Below, in pieces: positions 16,018-57,619 of a stretch of 64,000 nucleotides of DNA. The notes beneath the pieces were generated by a model. That model saw only the letters and a program-made list of their open reading frames with translations. It did no database searches and was not told the origin of the DNA. Location: contig NC_090331.1 in the NCBI RefSeq assembly GCF_035084215.1, positions 74,400,001 through 74,464,000 on the forward strand, in the 5' to 3' direction. This DNA is from Heptranchias perlo. Taxonomy: Eukaryota. Both the position numbers and the translations under genes were made by a program. How positions within the stretch are numbered: the first letter of the stretch is position 1; each line of letters opens with the position of its first letter.

Positions 16018-16805
16018 TGGGTCTGCAAAGGGATATCGATGGGTTAAGTGAGTGGGCAAGAAGGTGGCAGATGGAGTATAATGTGGGGAAATGTGAGGTT
16101 TGGTAGGAAAAATTGAATATTTTTTAAATGGTGAGAAACTATTAAATCTTGGTGTCTAGAGAGACTTGGGTGTCCTGATACAAGAAACACAAAAAATTAG
16201 CATGCAGGTACAGCAGGAAATTAGGAAAGCAAATGGCATTTTGGCCTTTATTGAAAGGGGGTTGGAGCACAAGAGTAAGGAAGTCTTACTACAATTGTAC
16301 AGGGCTTTGGTGAGACATCACCTGAAGTACTGTGTACAGTTTTGGTCTCCTTATCTAAGGAAGGATACACTTGCCTTAGAGGTGGTGCATCGAAGGTTCA
16401 CTAGATTAATTCCTGGGATGAAAGGGTTGTCCAAGAGGAGAGGTTGAGTAGAATGGACCTATACTCTCGAGTTTAGAAGAAGGAGAGGTGATCTCATTGA
16501 AACATATAAGATTCTGAGGGGGCTTGACTGGGTAGGTGCTGTTAGGTTGTTTCCCCTGGCTGGAGAGTCTAGAACTAGAGGGCAAAGTCGCAGGATAAGG
16601 GGCCGGCCATTTAAGACTAAGATAAAGAAGAATTTCTTCACTCAGAGGTTTGTGAATCTTTGGAATTCTCTACCCCAGAGGGCTGAGTCGTTGAGTATAT
16701 TCAAGGCTGAGATAGATGTATTTTTGGACTCTGGGGAATCAAGGGATGTGGGGATCGGGCAGGAAAGACAAGTTGAGGTCGAAGATCAGCCATGATCTGA
16801 TTGAA
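16018..16805 (+). mobile_element. Older 5'-truncated CR1 acting as insertion host; its last ~60 bp lie at 21558-21620
   Basis: ORFs 16166-16447 and 16547-16795; the tail gatcagccatgatctgattgaa continues as tggcagagcaggctcgagggg..ttcttatgttctt after 21557. Confidence 0.92.
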
Positions 16806-17048
16806 GCACTCGGAGCGGAGCTACAGGCGGGAGCGGACCTAGGAGAGAGCGCGGGACTCGGAGACTACTAAAGGCCCAGGCTCGAGGGCCTACCCGCACT
16901 CGGAGCGGAGCTACAGGCGGGAGCGGACCTAGGAGAGAGCGCGGGACTCGGAGACTACTAAAGGCCCAGGCTCGAGGGCCTACCTGCACTCGGAGCGGAG
17001 CTACAGGCGGGAGCGGACCTAGGAGAGAGCGCGGGACTCGGAGACTAC
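16806..17048 (+). repeat. 90-bp CpG-rich tandem monomer array (about 2.7 copies) at the CR1 5' end
   Basis: Unit gcactcggagcggagctacaggcgggagcggacctaggagagagcgcgggactcggagactac.. starts at 16806, 16896 and 16986; copies nearly identical. Confidence 0.97.
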
Positions 17049-17074
17049 AGAGAGGCAATCGGTGAAAAAAACAA

Positions 17075-17450
17075 GGATTGACGTCACAGGACAGCGGGTA
17101 GGTGATTGGCGAGTCGATAAAGGGAGCAGCGGAGGCCTGAGGTGAGTAATTAAGCTCACCTACGTGAGTCGTTTTCCCCAGCGGGGAAGGAGCTTCGCGG
17201 GCTTTTTCAAAGGCAGGGGGCGGGGCCAATTCATTGGTACCCGTATATAGGTGGAGCGGTTGCTAAACTCGAGACACTACACTAGTAGTGACTCCCACCC
17301 TCCCACCTCCTCTAACCTTTTGGGGGGTAGGTTCGATTTTATATTTTGTTTTCAGGGACTTAACTCCTGGACCAAAGATAAATAAGAAGCAAAAAGTAAT
17401 CCAAAGTGGGACGTCACCAAGGAAGAGGTAAGTGATTGGTTGGTGAGTAT
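17075..17450 (+). promoter_or_regulatory. Putative internal Pol II promoter of the CR1 5' UTR
   Basis: TGACGTCA 17079-17086, ATTGG 17105-17109, GC box ggggcgggg 17217-17225, CCAAT 17226-17230, TATATA 17244-17249, second GACGTCAC..GATTGG module 17410-17439. Confidence 0.6.
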
Positions 17451-17610
17451 TTTCCTGCTGAATTTGTCTAAGGTTAGAGTTTGTGGATTCGAGGGTCTCT
17501 GTTGTGTAGTGGGGGACTGCTGTTCAGCAAGGGCCCTTGAGTATACCTTTTAATTGAAGTGAAATTGGTGGGATTCATTTAATTTGAATTAATTAGTTAA
17601 AGGGTAAGTC

Positions 17611-18561
17611 ATGTCAGGACAGCCCAGCCTCGTGTTATGCTCTTCCTGCTCTATGTGGGAAATCAGGGACCCTTCCGGTGTCCCTGACGACCATGTTTGC
17701 GGGAAATGTATCCAGCTGCAGCTACTGACAAACCGCATTGCGGCACTGGAGCTGCGGATGGATTCATTATGGAGCATTCGCGATGCTGAAAACGTCGTGG
17801 ATAGCACGTTTAGTGAGATGGTCACACCGCAGGTAAAGGTTGTACAGGCAGGAAGTAAGTGGGTGACCTCCAGGCAGAGTAAGAGGAGCAGGCAGGCAGT
17901 GCAGGGGTCCCCTGTGGCCGTCCCCCTCTCAAACAAATATACCGCTTTGGATATTGTTGAGGGGGATGACTTATCAGGGGAGGGCAGCAGCAGCCAACTT
18001 CCTGGCACCAGGGGTAGCTCTGCTGCACAGGCTGGGAGGAAAAAGAGTGGAAGAGCTATAGTGGTAGGGGATTCTATCGTAAGGGGAACAGACAGGCGTT
18101 TCTGTGGCCTTAAACGTGACTCCAGGATGGTTTGTTGCCTCCCTGGTGCCAGGGTCATGGATGTCACTGAGCGGCTTCAGGGCATTCTCAAGGGGGAGGG
18201 TGAGCAGGCAGAGGTCGTGGTCCACATTGGGACCAACGACATAGGTAGGAAGGGAGATGAGGTCCTGCATCAAGAATTTAGGGAGCTAGGTAGCAGATTA
18301 AAGAGCAGGACCTCAAAGGTTGTAATCTCTGGATTACTCCCAGTGCCACGGGCTAGTGAGTATAGAAATAGGAGGATAGAACAGATGAATGCGTGGCTAA
18401 AGAGTTGGTGCAGGAGGGAGGGTTTCAGTTTCCTGGATCACTGGGCCTGCTTCTGGGGAAGGTGGGACTTGTACAAGTCGGACGGGTTGCACCTGAACCA
18501 GAGCGGGACAAATATCCTTGCGGGGAGGTTTGCTAGCACTGTTGCGGGGGGTTTAAACTAA
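17611..18561 (+). CDS. CR1 ORF1p: zinc finger + leucine zipper + SGNH/GDSL esterase domain (316 aa, intact)
   Basis: CSSC..CGKC, heptad leucines (LLTNRIAALELRMDSL), SGNH blocks GDS, PGA, HIGTND and DGLHLN. Confidence 0.95.
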   Translation: MSGQPSLVLCSSCSMWEIRDPSGVPDDHVCGKCIQLQLLTNRIAALELRMDSLWSIRDAENVVDSTFSEMVTPQVKVVQAGSKWVTSRQSKRSRQAVQGSPVAVPLSNKYTALDIVEGDDLSGEGSSSQLPGTRGSSAAQAGRKKSGRAIVVGDSIVRGTDRRFCGLKRDSRMVCCLPGARVMDVTERLQGILKGEGEQAEVVVHIGTNDIGRKGDEVLHQEFRELGSRLKSRTSKVVISGLLPVPRASEYRNRRIEQMNAWLKSWCRREGFSFLDHWACFWGRWDLYKSDGLHLNQSGTNILAGRFASTVAGGLN

Positions 18562-21475
18562 CTTGGCAGGGGGATGGGATACAGAGTGGAGCTACAATAG
18601 GGGGTGATGTGCAGCCAAATATTGAGAAAAAAACAAGTCAGCTTGGAAGACAGGGCAAATATGTAAGAGCAAGGCTGGATGGCATCTATTTTAATGCAAG
18701 GAGTCTTGCAAATAAGGTGGATGAACTGAAGGTGTTGATAAACACATGGGAGTATGATATTGTTGCTGTCACAGAGACATGGTTGAGGGAGGGGCAAGAC
18801 TGGCAGCTCAATATTCCGGGGTACAGAATCTTCAGGCAAGACAGAGGGGGAGGTATAAGAGGAGGGGGGGTCGCAATATTAATTAAAGAATCAATTACTG
18901 CCATAAGGAGGGATGATATATTAGCAGGTTCCTCAAATGAGGCCATATGGGTGGAGCTTAAAAACAAAAAGGGGGCAAGCACTTTGATGGGAGTGTACTA
19001 TAGACCCCCAGTCAGGGGGAGATAGAGGAACAGATATGTAGGCAAATCTCAGAAAATTGTGCAAATAATAGGGTAATAATAGTGGGGGATTTCAACTTCC
19101 CCAATATTAACTGGGATACTCAGAGTGTAAAATGCTTAGAGGGTACAAAATTCTTAACGTGCATCCAGGAGAGCTTTTTGAGCCAGCATGTAGAAAGTCC
19201 TACAAGAGAGGGGGCGGTACTGGACCTAATTCTAGGGAATGTGGCCGGCCAAGTGGAAGAAGTGCTAGTAGGTGAGCACTTTGGTGACAGTGACCATAAT
19301 TCAGTGAGATTTAAGGTGGTCATGGAAAAGGACAGGGAGGGGCCGGAAATAAAGGTTCTAAATTGGGGGAAGGCCGATTTTAATAGGATAAGGCAGGATC
19401 TGGCCAAAATGGACTGGGATCAGCTGCTTGTAGGAAAATCCGCATCGGAGCAATGGGAGTCTTTCAGAAGGGAGATTGAGACCATACAATGGCAACATGT
19501 TCCCGTAAAGGTCAAGGGTAGTTCCAAGAACTCCAGGGAACCTTGGATGTCAGGGGATATACGAGAATGGATCAGGAAAAAAAGGAGGGCTTTTGGCAGA
19601 TACAAAAGGCTAAGGACGGAGGAAGCCCTAGAGGAGTACAAAAAGTGCAGGGGGATACTTAAAAAGGAAATTAGGAGATCAAGGAGGAGCCATGAAAAAA
19701 CACTGGCGAGCAAAATAAAGGAAAATCCTAAGATGTTTTATAAGTATATTAAGGGTAAGAGGATAACTAGGGAAAAAATAGGGCCCATTAGGGACAAAAA
19801 TGGCAATCTGTGTGTGGAGCCGGCAGATGTAGGAGGGGTTCTAAATGAATTTTTTGCATCTGTTTTCACTGTGGAGAAGGACGACGTAGACATAGAAATA
19901 CGGCAGGGGGACTGTGATATACTCGAACATATTAACATCGAGCGGGAGGAGGTATTGGCGGTTTTAGCATGCCTAAAAATGGATAAATCCCCAGGCCCGG
20001 ACGAAATGTATCCCAGGCTACTGTGTGAGGCAAAGGAGGAGATTGCGGGGGCTCTAACACATATATTCAGAACCTCTCTGGCCACAGGGGATGTGCCAGA
20101 GGACTGGAGAACCGCTAATGTAGTACCATTATTCAAGAAGGGGAGTAGGGAAAAACCGGGGAATTACCGGCCAGTGAGCCTAACATCAGTGGTAGGAAAA
20201 TTATTGGAAAAAATTCTGAAGGACAAAATTAGTCTCCACTTGGAGAAGCAAGGATTAATCAGGGATAGTCAACATGGCTTTGTCAAGGGAAGATCATGTC
20301 TGACAAATTTGATTGAATTTTTTGAGGGGGTGACTAGGCGTGTGGATGAGGGTAACGCAGTGGATGTGGTATACATGGATTTCAGTAAGGCCTTCGATAA
20401 AGTCCCGCACAGGAGACTGGTCAAGAAGGTACGAGCCCATGGAATCCAGGGTGCCTTGGCACTTTGGATACAAAACTGGCTTAGTGGCAGAAGGCAGAGG
20501 GTGATGGTCGAAGTTTGTTTTTGTGACTGGAAGCCTGTGGCCAGTGGGGTACCACAGGGATCTGTGCTGGGGCCCTTGCTGTTTGTGGTCTACATTAATG
20601 ACTTGGATATGAATGTAAAAGGTATGATCAGTAAGTTCGCTGATGATACAAAAATTGGTAGGGTGGTAAATAGCGAGGAGGATAGCCTCAGTCTGCAGGA
20701 CGATATAGATGGGTTGGTCAGATGGGCGGAACAGTGGCAAATGGAATTTAACCCGGAAAAGTGCGAGGTGATGCACTTTGGAGGGACTAACAAGGCAAGG
20801 GAATACACAATGAATGGGAAGACCCTTGGCAAGACAGAGGGTCAGAGGGATCTTGGTGTGCAAGTTCACAGATCCCTGAAGGCGGCGGAACAGGTAGATA
20901 AGGTGGTAAAGAAGGCATATGGGATACTAGCCTTTATTAGCCGAGGCATAGAATATAAGAGCAAGGAGGTTATGATGGAGCTGTATAAAACACTGGTTAG
21001 GCCACAGCTGGAGTACTGTGTGCTGTTCTGGTCGCCGCACTACAGGAAGGATGTGATCGCTTTGGAGAGGGTGCAGAGGAGATTCACCAGGATGTTACCA
21101 GGGCTGGAGCGCTTCAGCTATGAAGAGAGAGTGGGAAGATTGGGTTTGTTTTCCTTGGAGCAGAGGAGGCTGAGGGGGGACATGATTGAGGTGTACAAAA
21201 TTATGAGGGGCATAGATAGGATGGATACTAAGGAGCTTTTTCCCTTCGTTGAGTGTTCTATAACAAGGGGGCATAGATTGAAGGTAAAAGGCGGGAGTTT
21301 TAGAGGGGATTTGAGAAAGAACTTTTTCACCCAGAGGGTGGTTGGAGTCTGGAACTCACTGCGTGAAAGGGTTGTGGAGGCAGGAACCCTCACAACATTC
21401 AAGAAGCATTTGGATGAGCACTTGAAATGCCATAGCATACAAGGCTACGGACCAAATGCTGGAATATGGGAGTAG
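18552..21475 (+). CDS. CR1 ORF2p (APE endonuclease + reverse transcriptase), one frameshift near 19010; no AUG start (see findings)
   Basis: Endonuclease motifs NARS, TETW, GGV, YRPP, GDFN, LDL, SDH; RT motifs YRPVSLTS, DFSKAFDKV, GVPQGSVLGP, FADD; ORF track segments 18609-19025 and 19082-21475. Confidence 0.93.
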
Positions 21476-21789
21476 ATTAGACTGGGCTTGATGGCCGGCG
21501 CGGACACGATGGGCCGAAGGGCCTCTATCCGTGCTGTATAACTCTATGACTCTATGAATGGCAGAGCAGGCTCGAGGGGCTGTATGACCCTATTCCTGCT
21601 CCTATTTCTTATGTTCTTAAGAGACCTACAAACACAATAGTCTTGCTGCCTTTAATAATTATAAATATTTAACTTATAAAAATATAATTTTATGCTGATC
21701 TTATAAATATTTACATTAAAAAAAGTTAACGTACGTCTGGAATGAGTCCTTTGTGTTACCTTTAGTTTAGTGACATTACGCTGATAACG

Positions 21790-24379: not shown

Positions 24380-24560
24380 AGCAGGTCTCCGTATCCCTGA
24401 CGAACTGCGCTACCATACTGCCGCCGTGTTACTCACCCTCCCTCCCTGAGTTCTCTGACCCCCGCACCGCACCCTCACATGTCTCGGCTCAATACAGATC
24501 GTTATCTGTCTCGTCCCGCGGGGTCACAGCCTTCCACACACGCTAGGAAGAAATGATCAC
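24380..24560. promoter_or_regulatory. Small CpG-enriched unique patch, possible promoter/first exon (minus-strand donor GG|GTGAGT at 24436)
   Basis: Local excess of CpG next to a very AT-rich block (23350-24300); no repeat similarity recognised. Confidence 0.3.
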
Positions 24561-24683
24561 ATGCAACTGAGGGAATGTTTCAAATGGGCATCTGACCGCA
24601 TGATGTTCAGGCAGCAGACTGTGAACACAGAGCGAAAGATACAACAGATTATCAGTGTAGGACTTTGTCAACTGCTTCAATGT

Positions 24684-26005
24684 AACTCAGAGTTTGATGT
24701 ACACAGGGAAACTCAGAGCTGGGAGTTTGATGTACACAGGGAAACTCAGAGCTGGGAGTTTGATGTACACAGGGTAACTCAGAGCTGGGAGTTTGATGTA
24801 CACAGGGTAACTCAGAGCTGGGAGTTTGATGTACACAGGGTAACTCAGAGCTGGGAGTTTGATGTACACAGGGTAACTCAGAGCTGGGAGTTTGATGTAT
24901 CATAGTAGCTACAGCACAAGTGGAGGCCATTCAGCCCATCGTGCCTGTGTCGGCTCTTTGAAAGAGCTATTCAATTAATCCCATTCCCCTGCTCTGTCCC
25001 CATAGTCCTGTAATATTTTTCCCTTCAAATAGTTATCCAATGCCCTTTTGAAAGTTACTATTGAATCTGCTTCCACCACCCGTTCAGGCAGTGTATTCCA
25101 GATCATTACAACTCGCTGCGTAAAAAAATATTTCCTCATGTCGCCTCTGGTTCTTTTGCCGATCAACTTAAATCTGTGTCCTCTGGTTACCGATCCTTCT
25201 GCCACTGCAAACAATTTCTCCTTATTTACTCTGTCAAAAGCCGTCAGGATTTTGAACACCTCTAACAAATTTCCCCTTAACCTTCTTTGTTCAAAGGTGA
25301 ACAACCCCAGCTTCTCCAGTCTCTCCACATAACTGAAGACCCTCATCCCTGGTACCATTCTCGTAAATCTCTTCTGCACCCTCTCTAAGGCCTTGACATC
25401 CTTCCTGGAGCGTGGTGCCCAGAATTGAACACAATGTTCCAGCTGCGGCCTAAGAAGTGCTTTATAAAGGTTTAGTATAACTTCCTTGGCTTTTGTACTC
25501 TATGCCTCTATTAATAAAGCCCAGGATCAATTATGCTATTTCAACAGCCTTCTCAACCTGTCCAGCCACCTTCAAAGATTTGTGTGTATGCACCCCCAGG
25601 TCTCTCTGTTCCAAGGCTATTAAAAAAGCATATGGGATCTTGGGCTTTATTAATAGAGGCATAAAGTAAAAAAGCAAAGAAGTTATGCTAAACCTTTAGA
25701 AAACACTGGTTAAGCCTCAGCTGGAGTGTTGTGTTCAATTCTGAGCACCACACTTTAGGAAGGATGTCAAGGCCATAGAGAGGGTGCAGTAGAGATTTAC
25801 TAGAATGGTGCCAGCGTACACAGGGTAACTCAGAACTGGGGGTTTAAGGGACACAGGAGATCTAAATTTGTGTTTGTGTTGTACACAGGGTAACTCCGAA
25901 CAGGGATTTTGATATACACAGTTTAACAGCAGAGCTGAGAGTTTGATGTACACCACAGGGTAACTCAGAGCTGGGTGTTTGATGTACACAAGGTAACAGC
26001 AGAGC
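24684..26005 (+). repeat. 33-bp minisatellite split by a CR1 insertion (homogeneous part 24684-24899, degenerate part 25816-26005)
   Basis: Unit gggtaactcagagctgggagtttgatgtacaca, about 6.5 contiguous copies. Confidence 0.95.
24901..25815 (-). mobile_element. CR1 3' fragment (minus, 24901-25612) fused to an oppositely oriented CR1 piece (plus, 25612-25815)
   Basis: ORF 24975-25379 (QKRFTRMVPG..TRGHRFK..FFTQRVV); the plus piece repeats the KAYGILGFI..FTRMVP segment. Confidence 0.9.
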
Positions 26006-48714: not shown

Positions 48715-51442
48715 CGTAGAAACATAGAAAATAGCAGCAGGAGTAGGCCATTCGGCCCTTCGAGCCTGCTCCGCCTTTCAATATGATTATGGCTGATCCT
48801 CTATCTCAATACCATATTCCCGCTCACTCCCCATACCCCTTGATGCCTTTTGTGTCTAGAAATCTATCTAACTCCTTCTTAAATATACTCAGTGACTTGG
48901 CCTCCACAGCCTTCTGTGGTAGAGAATTCCAAAGGTTCACCACCCTCTGAGTGAAGAAATTTCTCCTCATCTCAGTCCTAAATGTCCTACCCCATATCCT
49001 GAGACTGTAACCCCTCATTCTGGACCCCCCAGCCAGGGGAAACATCCTCCCTGCATCCAGTCTGTCTAGCCCTGTCAGAATTTTATATGTTTCAATGAGA
49101 TCCCCTCTCATTCTTCTGAACTCAAGTGAATACAGGCCGAGTCGACCCAATCTCTCCTCATACAACAGTCTTGCCATCCCAGGAATCAGTCTGGTGAACC
49201 TTCGCTGCACTCCCTCTCTGGCAAGTATATCCTTTCTTAGGTAAGGAGACCTAAACTGCACACAATACTCCAGGTGTGATCTCACCAATAACTGTAGTAA
49301 GACATCCTTGCTCCTGTACTCAAATCCTCTTGCAATGAAGGCCAACATACCATTTGCCTTCCTAACTGCTTTCTGCACCTGCATGTTTGCTTTCAGTGAC
49401 TGGTGTACAAGGACATCCAGGTCCCTTTGTAAATCAACGTTTCCCAATCCATCACCATTTAAATAACACTTTGCCTTTCTGTTTTTCCTTCCGAAGTGGA
49501 TAACTTCACATTTATCCACATTATATTGCATCTTCCATGTATTTGCCCACTCACTCAACTTGTCTAAATCGCCTTGAAGCCTCTTTGCATCCTCCTCACA
49601 ACTCACGATCCCACCTAGTTTTGTGTCGTCAGCAAACTTGGAAATATTACATTTGGTTCCCTCATCCAAATCATTGATATATATTGTGAATAGCTGGGGC
49701 CCAAGCGCTGATCCCTGTGGTACCCCACTTGTCACCGCCTGCCACCCCGAAAAAGACCCATTTATTCCTACTCTCTGTTTCCTGTCTGTTAACCAATTTT
49801 CAATCCATGCCATTATATTACCCACAATCCCACGTGCTTTCATTTTGCACACGAACCAATTTCCTGTTTGATTCTATCCCCTACATTACCATTACTGTTT
49901 GGAGGCCTATAGACAACTCCCACCAGTGTTTTCTGCCCCTTGGTGCTTCTTAACTCCACCCAGACTGATTCTACACCTTGATTTTCTGAGCCAATATCCT
50001 TTCTCACTGTTGCTCTGATTTCATCCTTTACTAACAATGCCACCCCACCTCCTTTTCCTTTTTGCCTGTCCTTCCTAAATATCGAATATCTTTGGATATT
50101 CAGCTCCCAGCCTTGGTCATCCTGCAGCCATGTCTCTGTAATTGCAATTATATCATATCCGTTTACATCTATTTGCGCTGTTAATTCATCTACTTTATTA
50201 CGAATGCTTCGTGCATTCAGATACAGTGCCTTTAGATTTGTCTTTTTAACATTTTTAGACATCTTAACATTTTTTGTACTATGGCCCTATTTGTCTTATT
50301 ACCATTTTTTCTTACCCGGACCCTATTTGTCAGTGCACTCTTTTGTTTGTACTCTCTGACACAATCTGGATATCCTTACCCCAATCACTTTCCGACACTG
50401 CTTCTTTGTCTTTTCTCTTTAGCATTCTCGACTTCTCTCCACTGGGACCCTCACCCCACTTATTTAGTTTAAAGCCCTATCTACCTCCCTAGTTATTCGA
50501 TTCGCTAGAACTCTGGTCCCAGCATGGTTCAGGTGTAGTCTGACCCAATGGAACAGCTCTCTCTTTCCCCAGTACTGGTGCCAGTGCCCCATGAATCGAA
50601 ACCCACCTCTCCCACACCAATCTTTGAGCCACGCATTCATCTCCCTGATCCTATTGACCCTATGCCAATTTGCTTGTGGCTCAGATAATAATCCAGAGAT
50701 TATTACCTTTGTGGTTCTGCTTTTTAATTTAGTCGCCAGCTGCTCAAACTCTCTCAGCAGAACCTTTTTTTTTAGTCCTACCTATGTCGTTGGTACCTAC
50801 ATGGACCACGACAACTGGATCCTCCCCCTCCCACTCCAAATTCTTCTCCAGCCCAGAGGAGATGTCCTTAACCCTGGCATCGGGTTGGCAACATAGCCTT
50901 CGGAACTCATGCTCCTGGCTTCAGAGAACAGTGTCTATCCCCCTAACTATACTGACGCCTACTACAAACATCTTCCTTTTTACTCCCCCCATTTGAACGG
51001 CTTCCTGTACCACGGTGCCGTGGTCAGTTTGCTCGTCCTCCCCGCAGTCCCCGCACTTGTCAACAATGGTTGCAAGAACCTCAAATCAACTGGACAAGCG
51101 CAGGGACTGAGGCTCCTGCAATACTACCTCCTGGATCTCCGTACTTGTCTCGTTCGCAGTCACACCCTCCTGTCCCTGACCTCGTGTCAATTCTAAAGTA
51201 TTTAATCTAAGGGGTGTGACTGCCTCCTGGAGCAAAAGGTCCAGGTCGCTTTCTCCCTCCCTGATATCTCGCAATATCTGCAGCTCGGACTCCAGCTCCT
51301 CAACTCGGAGCCGAAGTTCCTTGAGCCACTTACTGCAGATGTAGTCGCCATGGACAAAAATGTCCGCAAGCTGCCACATATTGCAGCAGCAACACATCTC
51401 CTGTTCTCCCATTTTATTTATTTAATTTATTAATTTAGTGTT
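48715..51442 (-). mobile_element. CR1 LINE with ORF1, endonuclease N-terminus, a large internal deletion near 49850 and the RT C-terminal half
   Basis: ORFs 51086-51412 (CCCCNMW..CSK zinc finger), 49840-50262 (NARS, TETW, YRPPNS) and 48824-49852 (PQG, FADD); tail acgtagaaacatagaaa. Confidence 0.93.
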
Positions 51443-55222: not shown

Positions 55223-57619
55223 CTTGTATCCAAGGATATTTAGTACCCAATCCTGCCCTTTTTTGAGCCAGGTCTCCGTTATCGTCACTACATCATATTC
55301 GCATGTGGCTAATTGGGCCTGCAGCTCACTAACCTTGTTTACTACATTACTGCATGCATTTACATACATGCACTTTAAATCTATCTTAGACCTTCTTGTA
55401 TTCTCTCTTAGTCTGATCCCACCTAATACCATACTATTTCTTACTCTAGCGCTATCAATCTCTCCCAATCCTTTGTGCACCTTGTTTCTCCTTTCCAATG
55501 CTACATCCTGATGCCCAACTCCCTGCCAAATTAACTTAAACCCTCCCCCACAGAACCAGCGAACCTCCCTGCAAGGACATTGGTCCCAGCTCTGTGCAGG
55601 TGCAACCTGTCCGGCTTGTACTGGTCCCAATGCCCCAGGAATCTCAAGCCCTCCATCTCGCCAGCCATACAGTTATCTGTGCTACCCTTCTACTTCTATA
55701 CTCATTAGCCCGTGCCACCAGATGTAATCCGGAGATGACTACATTTGTGTTTCTGCTTATTAATCTCTTTCCTAACTCCCTAAACACTTCCTGCAGGACC
55801 CCATCCCTCTTTCTACCTATGTCTTTGGTACCAATATGGACCATGACCTCTGTTCACCCTCCCCCTTCAGAATGTTTTGTAGCCACTCAATGACATCCTT
55901 GACCCTGGCACCAGACAGGCAACACACCATCCTGGAATCACATCTGCGGCTGCAGAAGCACCTGTCTGTTCCCCTAACTATTGAATCTCCTATCACTTTT
56001 GCTCTCCTGACCTTTCTCCTTCTCCCTGTACAGCTAACCCTAACCCTGATGAAATAATTGCAGTGCTTAATGTGGTAATGAGCCAAATAGACCCAAAAGG
56101 CCTCAGGTTCAAAGGCTGAGCTGTACTGAGTTAACTTTTTAAAAAATTCATTCTCGGGACGTGGGTGTTGCTGGCAACGCCGGCATTTATTGCCTATCCC
56201 AAGTTGCCCTTGAATAGGTGGTGGTGGGCCTTCTTCTTGAACTGCCGCAGTCTGTGCAGTAGGAAGTTCCAGGATTTTGATTCAGCGACAATGAAGGAAC
56301 GGCGATATATATCCAACTCAGGATGGTGTGTGACTTAGAGGGGACTGAAAATATCAGTCAGGGTTTCCACTCCTTATCATCAACTAGTGACCTCTATTAG
56401 AAACTGTGCCCGACCGTGAGGTGAGTACGGGACGTACCAAGGTCAAACAGCCTGCCAATATTCACTGCCAGGCATCAGTCTTGAAGAATTTCCACTTAGG
56501 TGAAGTACTAAAGGACTGCCAGCACCTGTAGAACAGGACACCAGAATAAATCAGTACTTTCAAGGACAGCAGAAGAGAAAATTGGAAATGGGGGAGTGAG
56601 AAAGAGAGCTGCTCTATAACCGATGGTCAATAGTACATGCTCCGGGATTGACTGATCCTCTGGTTTCTCTTCCGTCTCTATCAGCTTTACTCAGCATCTT
56701 GGATGATTTTTGAGATTGTTGCCTTGCTCTATGGGGAATCATAGGTGTGAGCTCAAATAAGCCTTACAACAGCTTCCATTATTGGCTAGCAAAATAATAA
56801 ACACAGGTAACTCACTAAGCAAAACAGCTCACACAACTTGCATTTATTTTCTGCATGTAAATGATAATTTTATCTTGTAAACTGCTGATAATTCACATAT
56901 CAACATTTAAAAGAGCTCAAATATGTGATTTACTTGTTTAATTTTCTCCCCTCCTCTCCTGAAGAACTGATTTGTACTGGATATGGTTTCATGGGGCATT
57001 AGCTGGTCTCTGACTCAGTGGCGATTCTTTATGTATGAGTCCAGACACTAAGGCAGGATTTTCAATTGCATTTCTGTTGGGTTTGCAGCAATACTAGGGT
57101 AGATTATTGGGTCAAGACCTGTGTAGGCCTTAGTTGAGCCCAAGGTTAAAATGGCTTGCGCGTCCCAATGACATAATCAGGATGTGACTCTGCTATTTAA
57201 ATTAGGTCCTGCTCCTCTGGAGCAGGCGGCCATCCCTGAATTCAGGCAGCTACAAATGGTGTGGGCGAGAACTCGGCCGGAATGCGGCACGCACCTCCCC
57301 TGCCATCTTATATTTCCCGCCCGTACCATTCCCACCGGGCGGGGGTTTAAAATCGGCCCTGATATGTTAATGTCGTCCTGATCACATTATTTAAGTATTC
57401 ATGTAACTCTCTGATGTTCCTGCACGCCTAACTCCACCCATATAACTAGGGAATGAATTATATACAGAAGTTCATTTAAATACCTCAGTAAGAGGATTCT
57501 TTGCTCATTGTTTGGTCCATTTCTCAACCACTTTACTTATTTCCTTTTGCTGCTGTCACTTAGGTGTTTGGGAGTCTTTGTTCCAATTGTTGTGGCACGG
57601 CTATTTTTTCTGAATAGCT

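Follow-up and report, generated by a model that had tools for sequence, protein, structure and literature searches.

A conserved slippery heptamer at the ORF1–ORF2 junction of CR1 retrotransposons suggests programmed −1 ribosomal frameshifting

We analysed 64,000 nucleotides of the Heptranchias perlo genome (contig NC_090331.1, positions 74,400,001 to 74,464,000 of the forward strand; hereafter the window), which hold a full-length copy of a CR1 long interspersed nuclear element (LINE). The first open reading frame (ORF1) of this copy ends GGG GGT TTA AAC TAA, so that the heptamer T TTA AAC stands in the X XXY YYZ register of the zero frame. In every CR1 family examined here, ORF1 ends on this shared heptamer and a stop codon, and ORF2 lies one base back, in most cases with no start codon of its own. 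The signal is real and deeply conserved. The first-pass annotation of the window had proposed that a programmed −1 ribosomal frameshift on this heptamer fuses ORF1 to an ORF2 lacking its own AUG, and sequence comparison between families supports that interpretation. We therefore favour programmed −1 frameshifting as the probable explanation of the CR1 junction, with a probability of about 0.78.

In the proposed mechanism, a minority of ribosomes would slip back one base on U UUA AAC by tandem −1 slippage, and most would stop after the heptamer and release the ORF1 protein (ORF1p). The fusion product would comprise, in order, a zinc finger, an esterase, a linker, an endonuclease and a reverse transcriptase, with the predicted junction peptide ..GGLN/LTWQGDG...

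The junction and the ORF2 frame

The window sequence at 18552–18561 confirms the annotated T_TTA_AAC TAA and its register. Canonical in-frame heptamers occur at only 3 of 1,282 scanned positions of the element, and two of these overlap at the ORF1 end. The string TTTAAACTAR is found three times in the window, with 0.56 occurrences expected, and 3 of 100 shuffles reach three. Both other matches (23–32 and 50464–50473, minus strand) are junctions of other CR1 families; a fourth CR1 junction, near 55540 (minus strand) and likewise of another family, has an altered heptamer. The codon preceding TTA is GGT in the window copy and GCT, ACT or CAT in other families.

Past an upstream TAG, the −1 frame reads FKLTWQGDG...YFNARS...TETW. 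The annotation had described it as open into the endonuclease; this stands through the TETW motif, with the first in-frame ATG at 18987, and fails further on, as the frame stops at 19025 in the window copy because four bases have been lost near 19008. These bases are present in related sequences in four of four runs. Since ORF2 is broken in this copy, the frameshift claim applies to the CR1 family. Sister copies are 99–100% identical to the window copy across the junction; the −1 frame runs uninterrupted for 975 codons from the heptamer in three of eight of them, and for 982 and 985 codons in two other families. The first methionine of the frame lies at codon 145 in all eight sister copies.

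Linkers between heptamer and endonuclease differ in length (33, 45, 50, 55, 58, 60, 68, 69, 86 and 92 codons), all of them in the −1 frame. The 12 closest ORF2 proteins have predicted starts ranging from 88 residues before the NARS motif to beyond it, although these are gene-caller starts and carry little weight. Given this scatter, the endonuclease is preceded by no conserved AUG. The suggestion that ORF2 AUGs would be absent from the junction thus holds for conserved positions, with the addition that one abundant young subfamily carries UAAUG, an AUG overlapping the ORF1 stop. The window family has TAACT at this point, without an overlapping AUG, and the codon overlapping the stop in other families is ACT, ATT, GCT, GAG, AAG, AAT, GTA, GCA, AAA, ATC or GAA.

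Conservation within and beyond this genome

CR1 copies decay neutrally, and conservation was therefore tested between families. Among ORF1 ends genome-wide that encode Leu-Asn-TRR with any codons, 4,972 of 5,510 use T TTA AAC; the control codons CAC CTG AAC, for an upstream His-Leu-Asn, are used in 2,222 of 5,510. When esterase anchors were selected irrespective of how ORF1 ends, T TTA AAC TAR stands at the exact spacing in 10,913 of 15,706. We also compared 23 sequence clusters, 13 of them with a single copy, which together comprise 101 copies at a mean distance of 0.33. A T precedes TTA in 22/22 clusters, though the residue is glycine in only 11, and the codons themselves are fixed (TTA in 22/22, AAC in 23/23). 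By contrast, five other leucine positions use two to six codons each, the top codon accounting for 11/12, 16/20, 11/22, 11/23 and 8/21. As this sample was partly picked by the heptamer, the count was repeated on loci picked without it. In a first set of 30 loci, one lacked an anchor and the heptamer was exact in 27 of the other 29; in a second set it was exact at 27 of 30 anchors, with one false anchor and one locus unanchored. Apart from the false anchor, the misses were indels. The synonymous positions of the heptamer are thus fixed across families while other leucine codons vary, as the annotation had expected of a functional site, and the heptamer is conserved beyond what the amino acids require.

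Outside this genome, one metagenome locus (L091), whose ORF1 shares 36% protein identity, ends CAT TTA AAC TAG; its −1 frame is closed by a stop five codons upstream and has no methionine before NARS. Its ORF1 ends like that of P0061, whose cluster includes sturgeon-named members. A second metagenome locus (L092) proved to be a bacterial acyltransferase rather than CR1. A scan of genome contigs for further junctions returned one decayed fragment without a junction, and searches of viral contigs, plasmids and phages for the CR1 junction gave no match.

At the protein level, the best match of the window ORF1 is a Pristiophorus protein (71%). Leu-Asn ends are found in 63 of 108 ORF1 homologues, the named ones from sharks, rays, frogs, turtles and lizards; after an unrelated end (P0103) was dropped, 62 were compared. 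The residue preceding Leu-Asn can be encoded by a codon ending in T in 61/62, compared with 25/62 one position earlier. A bird gene model reads RQSFKLD on to TNARS, which would be the −1 reading expected from an xALN end. In a profile search yielding 150 cluster representatives, 100 with a usable C-terminus, the C-terminal tripeptide fits a canonical heptamer in 58 of the 100, against a background of 3.5%. Ends other than Leu-Asn fit in 13 of 54 cases, comprising 11 xGN (9 of them QGN, fitting G GGA AAC) and 2 xKN, and 8 further representatives carry xKN at one fixed position. The ends of these distant relatives fit G_GGA_AAC or A_AAA_AAC, which correspond to the shiftiest heptamers named in the available text of PMC5009743. 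Among 8,000 scored candidates, annotated ORF1–ORF2 fusions gave six matches, none a natural full fusion, which is weak evidence either way; one bird model joins the frames as a gene prediction. Two fish-type CR1 proteins (P0008 and P0284) are deposited as Pseudomonas aeruginosa and Carnobacterium maltaromaticum, probably through host contamination.

Downstream sequence and alternative explanations

Frameshift sites usually, though not universally, carry a stem-loop or pseudoknot 5–9 bases downstream, and none was found here. No stable local structure follows the heptamer in 21/21 copies (z-scores −1.17 to +1.24; pseudoknots not modelled explicitly), and this weighs against frameshifting. With no local hairpin predicted, the pause would most likely come from the adjacent stop codon together with a G tract 6–20 bases downstream, a suggestion we offer as a guess. 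The tract could act as a two-tier G-quadruplex or as a protein-binding G run. A G run recurs at +11 to +15 (G in 16–19 of 21 copies) and at +18 to +20; the G4Hunter-type score of the tract ranks within the highest tenth for its locus in 18/21 copies, and a quadruplex appears in the minimum-energy fold in 11/21. In synthetic constructs, a G-quadruplex 6–8 bases after UUUAAAC gave ~7% shifting, and less with fewer tiers (PMC3919603, in the part available); natural G-quadruplex-stimulated −1 frameshifting was not known as of the accessible portion of PMC5009743. G runs flanking the heptamer often vary in length among copies, up to ~20 G (L120, L121, L129; L021, L038, L043). Long-range pairing of the tract was considered and not adopted: the best partner often lay ~650 bases upstream in ORF1, the motif was limited to few families of a single clade, and compensatory changes were not observed. 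A pyrimidine-rich ORF1 stretch at 17913–17929 (VPLSN codons) can pair with the tract and ranks among its best four partners, both in the window family and in several more.

Several further observations weigh against frameshifting. GGG is the element's commonest glycine codon (39/94) and the tract encodes glycine-rich residues, so its conservation may reflect a protein constraint. The AAC codon alone says little, since an upstream asparagine is also AAC in 20/21. Clusters and proteins are related, and the counts are not independent events. Just one non-shark junction was seen as DNA, the tetrapod and xGN/xKN evidence coming from protein ends. Methionine codons occur at scattered places in the linkers of some families (L120, L127, L130, L154). 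UAAUG, the SART1 stop-start motif, occurs in 3,401 of the 10,913 junctions. Finally, a fixed −1 frame is also expected from reinitiation on a codon overlapping the stop.

The last two points bear on termination–reinitiation of the SART1 or human L1 type, in which ribosomes would restart on the overlapping −1 codon, whether or not it is AUG, or a nearby one and make free ORF2 protein (ORF2p), the heptamer serving as a pause or surviving as a relic. ORF2 translation in L1 is reportedly independent of AUG. Translation of L1 ORF2 depends on ORF1 (PMC2881922), and SART1 couples its frames through UAAUG (available text of PMC3894237); in CR1, the stop always adjoins the heptamer and no structural stimulator was found, as reinitiation would allow. 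Against it, the overlapping codon varies among families, and UAAUG is confined to one subfamily (L095, L099, L153 and relatives) that retains the heptamer in 33/33 copies. In a tree of 35 copies, built from the 200 bases upstream of the heptamer, UAAUG copies nest in one terminal clade that also holds near-identical AAG members, and the sister clade is AAG (clade support 100/99). The AUG therefore looks derived. Reinitiation also leaves the fixed third base before TTA and the switch among canonical heptamers unexplained, and we judge it improbable. A mixed scheme, with frameshifting in most families and stop-start reinitiation added in the young UAAUG subfamily, would extend the frameshift explanation and offers no alternative for the window family. 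The subfamily is large and young and keeps the heptamer, as this scheme would have it, but one A-to-T substitution is enough to account for the AUG, and meeting ATG once in roughly a dozen codons observed there is close to chance; we consider the scheme unlikely.

TTTAAAC might instead be kept for another reason, as an RNA or DNA binding site or through the esterase's Leu-Asn combined with codon inertia, with ORF2 expressed from an internal start or a spliced RNA. Leu-Asn is indeed invariant in 31/31 aligned proteins, yet distant relatives have Gly-Asn or Lys-Asn in its place, and their ends remain compatible with a heptamer. Were ORF2 to start internally at 18987, the protein would be without the NARS and TETW motifs. 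As for splicing, the window family has CTAAC..CAG past the heptamer, which resembles a branch point with an acceptor, and GTAAGT stands just before the ORF1 ATG in the window copy; but the FKLNRG and FKLERK families lack the CAG, a pyrimidine tract is missing, and this donor-like site was present in 1 of 15 copies checked. None of the joints examined (15/25) ends at CAG after the heptamer. This whole group of explanations suits few families, and we regard it as very improbable. Several splice-donor-like GTRAGT sites lie in the 5′ untranslated region (UTR) of the window copy (17143–17610), one adjoining the ORF1 ATG.

Element architecture, related systems and implications

The window copy has the features of a canonical esterase-ORF1 CR1 element (Table 1), with an SGNH esterase in ORF1 (Pfam PF13472, 7e-16; PDB 4c1b, an ORF1-encoded protein, 5.5e-29), an APE endonuclease and reverse transcriptase in ORF2 (Pfam PF03372, PF14529 and PF00078) and a short tandem repeat at the 3′ end. 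Such a repeat in place of poly(A) is a feature of canonical CR1. Poly(A) is described as unique to Zenon in the available text of PMC13343379. TGAA flanks the insertion on both sides, the surrounding host CR1 copy occupying 16448–16805 and 21558–21600. The 90-base units of the 5′ UTR resemble promoter monomers. Elsewhere in the window, a short tandem array at 24459–24905 encodes repeated HRVTQSWEFDV.

Table 1 Features of the CR1 copy and its ORF1–ORF2 junction in the window
Feature	Position	Strand	Remarks
Full-length CR1 LINE copy	16806–21557	+	Nested inside the 3′ end of another CR1 copy
5′ UTR tandem array	16806–17048	+	90-base unit, 2.7 copies, 99% matched
ORF1, 316 amino acids	17611–18561	+	ATG at 17611; CX2C-X16-CX2C N-terminal, SGNH esterase C-terminal
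TAG ending the −1 frame	18534–18536	+	Five codons 5′ of the heptamer
Second canonical heptamer, G GGT TTA	18549–18555	+	Overlaps the first; absent from some families
Slippery heptamer, T TTA AAC	18552–18558	+	Final two ORF1 codons
−1 frame linker, 45 codons	18552–18686	+	No ATG; from FKL to the YFNARS motif
ORF1 stop	18559–18561	+	Adjoins the heptamer; TAA in this copy, whereas other families use TAG
G-rich tract, GGCAGGGGGATGGG	18565–18578	+	Begins 6 bases past the heptamer; candidate stimulator
ORF2 endonuclease, 5′ part	18687–19008	+	Pfam PF03372, 6.6e-08; first in-frame ATG 18987
Remaining ORF2 (endonuclease 3′ part and reverse transcriptase)	19004–21475	+	Out of frame in the window copy
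3′ terminal 8-base repeat, TATGACTC	21537–21557	+	2.6 copies; no poly(A)

The vertebrate canonical CR1 elements described in PMC13343379 and PMC3905857 share the esterase ORF1, the APE and reverse transcriptase ORF2 and the short 3′ tandem repeat, and the route of ORF2 translation is not addressed in the available parts of either paper. A literature search for CR1 frameshifting found no report, although CR1 papers from 1997–2003, outside its reach, may remark on the overlap. Frameshifting goes unmentioned in the accessible text of PMC13343379, PMC3905857, PMC8665684 and PMC2881922, as does CR1 in that of PMC5009743; the corresponding part of PMC11835228 ties frameshifting only to retroviruses, and the portions available of PMC5006619, PMC13405545 and PMC1947958 hold nothing relevant.

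The window CR1 resembles systems that carry the identical UUUAAAC in register where a structural-type ORF overlaps a polymerase ORF. It differs from them in having no predicted local hairpin, a stop that adjoins the heptamer and a G-rich tract instead. It is also a retrotransposon without long terminal repeats (non-LTR) and without a protease, so the fusion would presumably stay uncleaved unless processed by the host. The synthetic G-quadruplex constructs of PMC3919603 likewise combine UUUAAAC with downstream G tracts; according to the part available, their quadruplexes are three-tier, whereas mostly two tiers can form in the CR1 tract, an arrangement reported to be weaker. Like CR1, SART1 and human L1 have a bicistronic LINE RNA, and UAAUG is common to SART1 and one CR1 subfamily; they differ in giving free ORF2p, and in most CR1 families here the stop is not overlapped by an AUG. 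For ORF2 initiation in LINEs, called an open question in the available text of PMC3894237, UAAUG, reinitiation, an internal ribosome entry site (IRES) and 2A are named there. The first-pass annotation had set the junction against L1 alone. L1 reinitiation stands as a rival, but it is not the sole comparison: for the APE-type non-LTR elements TRE5-A and TRE3-A of Dictyostelium, a legend in the part available of a review states that a −1 frameshift is required for ORF2 (PMC5911963). The idea of frameshifting is therefore not new for LINEs, although these elements belong to another lineage and have another ORF1.

We advance tentatively, and regard as doubtful, a wider proposal: a retrovirus-style fusion would be made by the esterase CR1 elements of jawed vertebrates, and also by the more distant relatives whose ends fit G_GGA_AAC or A_AAA_AAC, with stop codon and G tract as the driver in place of a pseudoknot. 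It would be a naturally occurring case of frameshifting stimulated by a G tract, retained for more than 400 million years.

In most vertebrate species the dominant retrotransposons belong to the CR1 group (PMC13343379, in the text available). If frameshifting is confirmed, slippage would account for production of the copying enzyme by these widespread elements, and CR1 ORF2p would be joined to the esterase ORF1p in the way that Pol is joined to Gag. Annotations in which ORF2 starts at an internal methionine would then be truncated, and shifting in the absence of a hairpin would suggest an unusual stimulator. The conserved shift site offers a short, direct reporter test.

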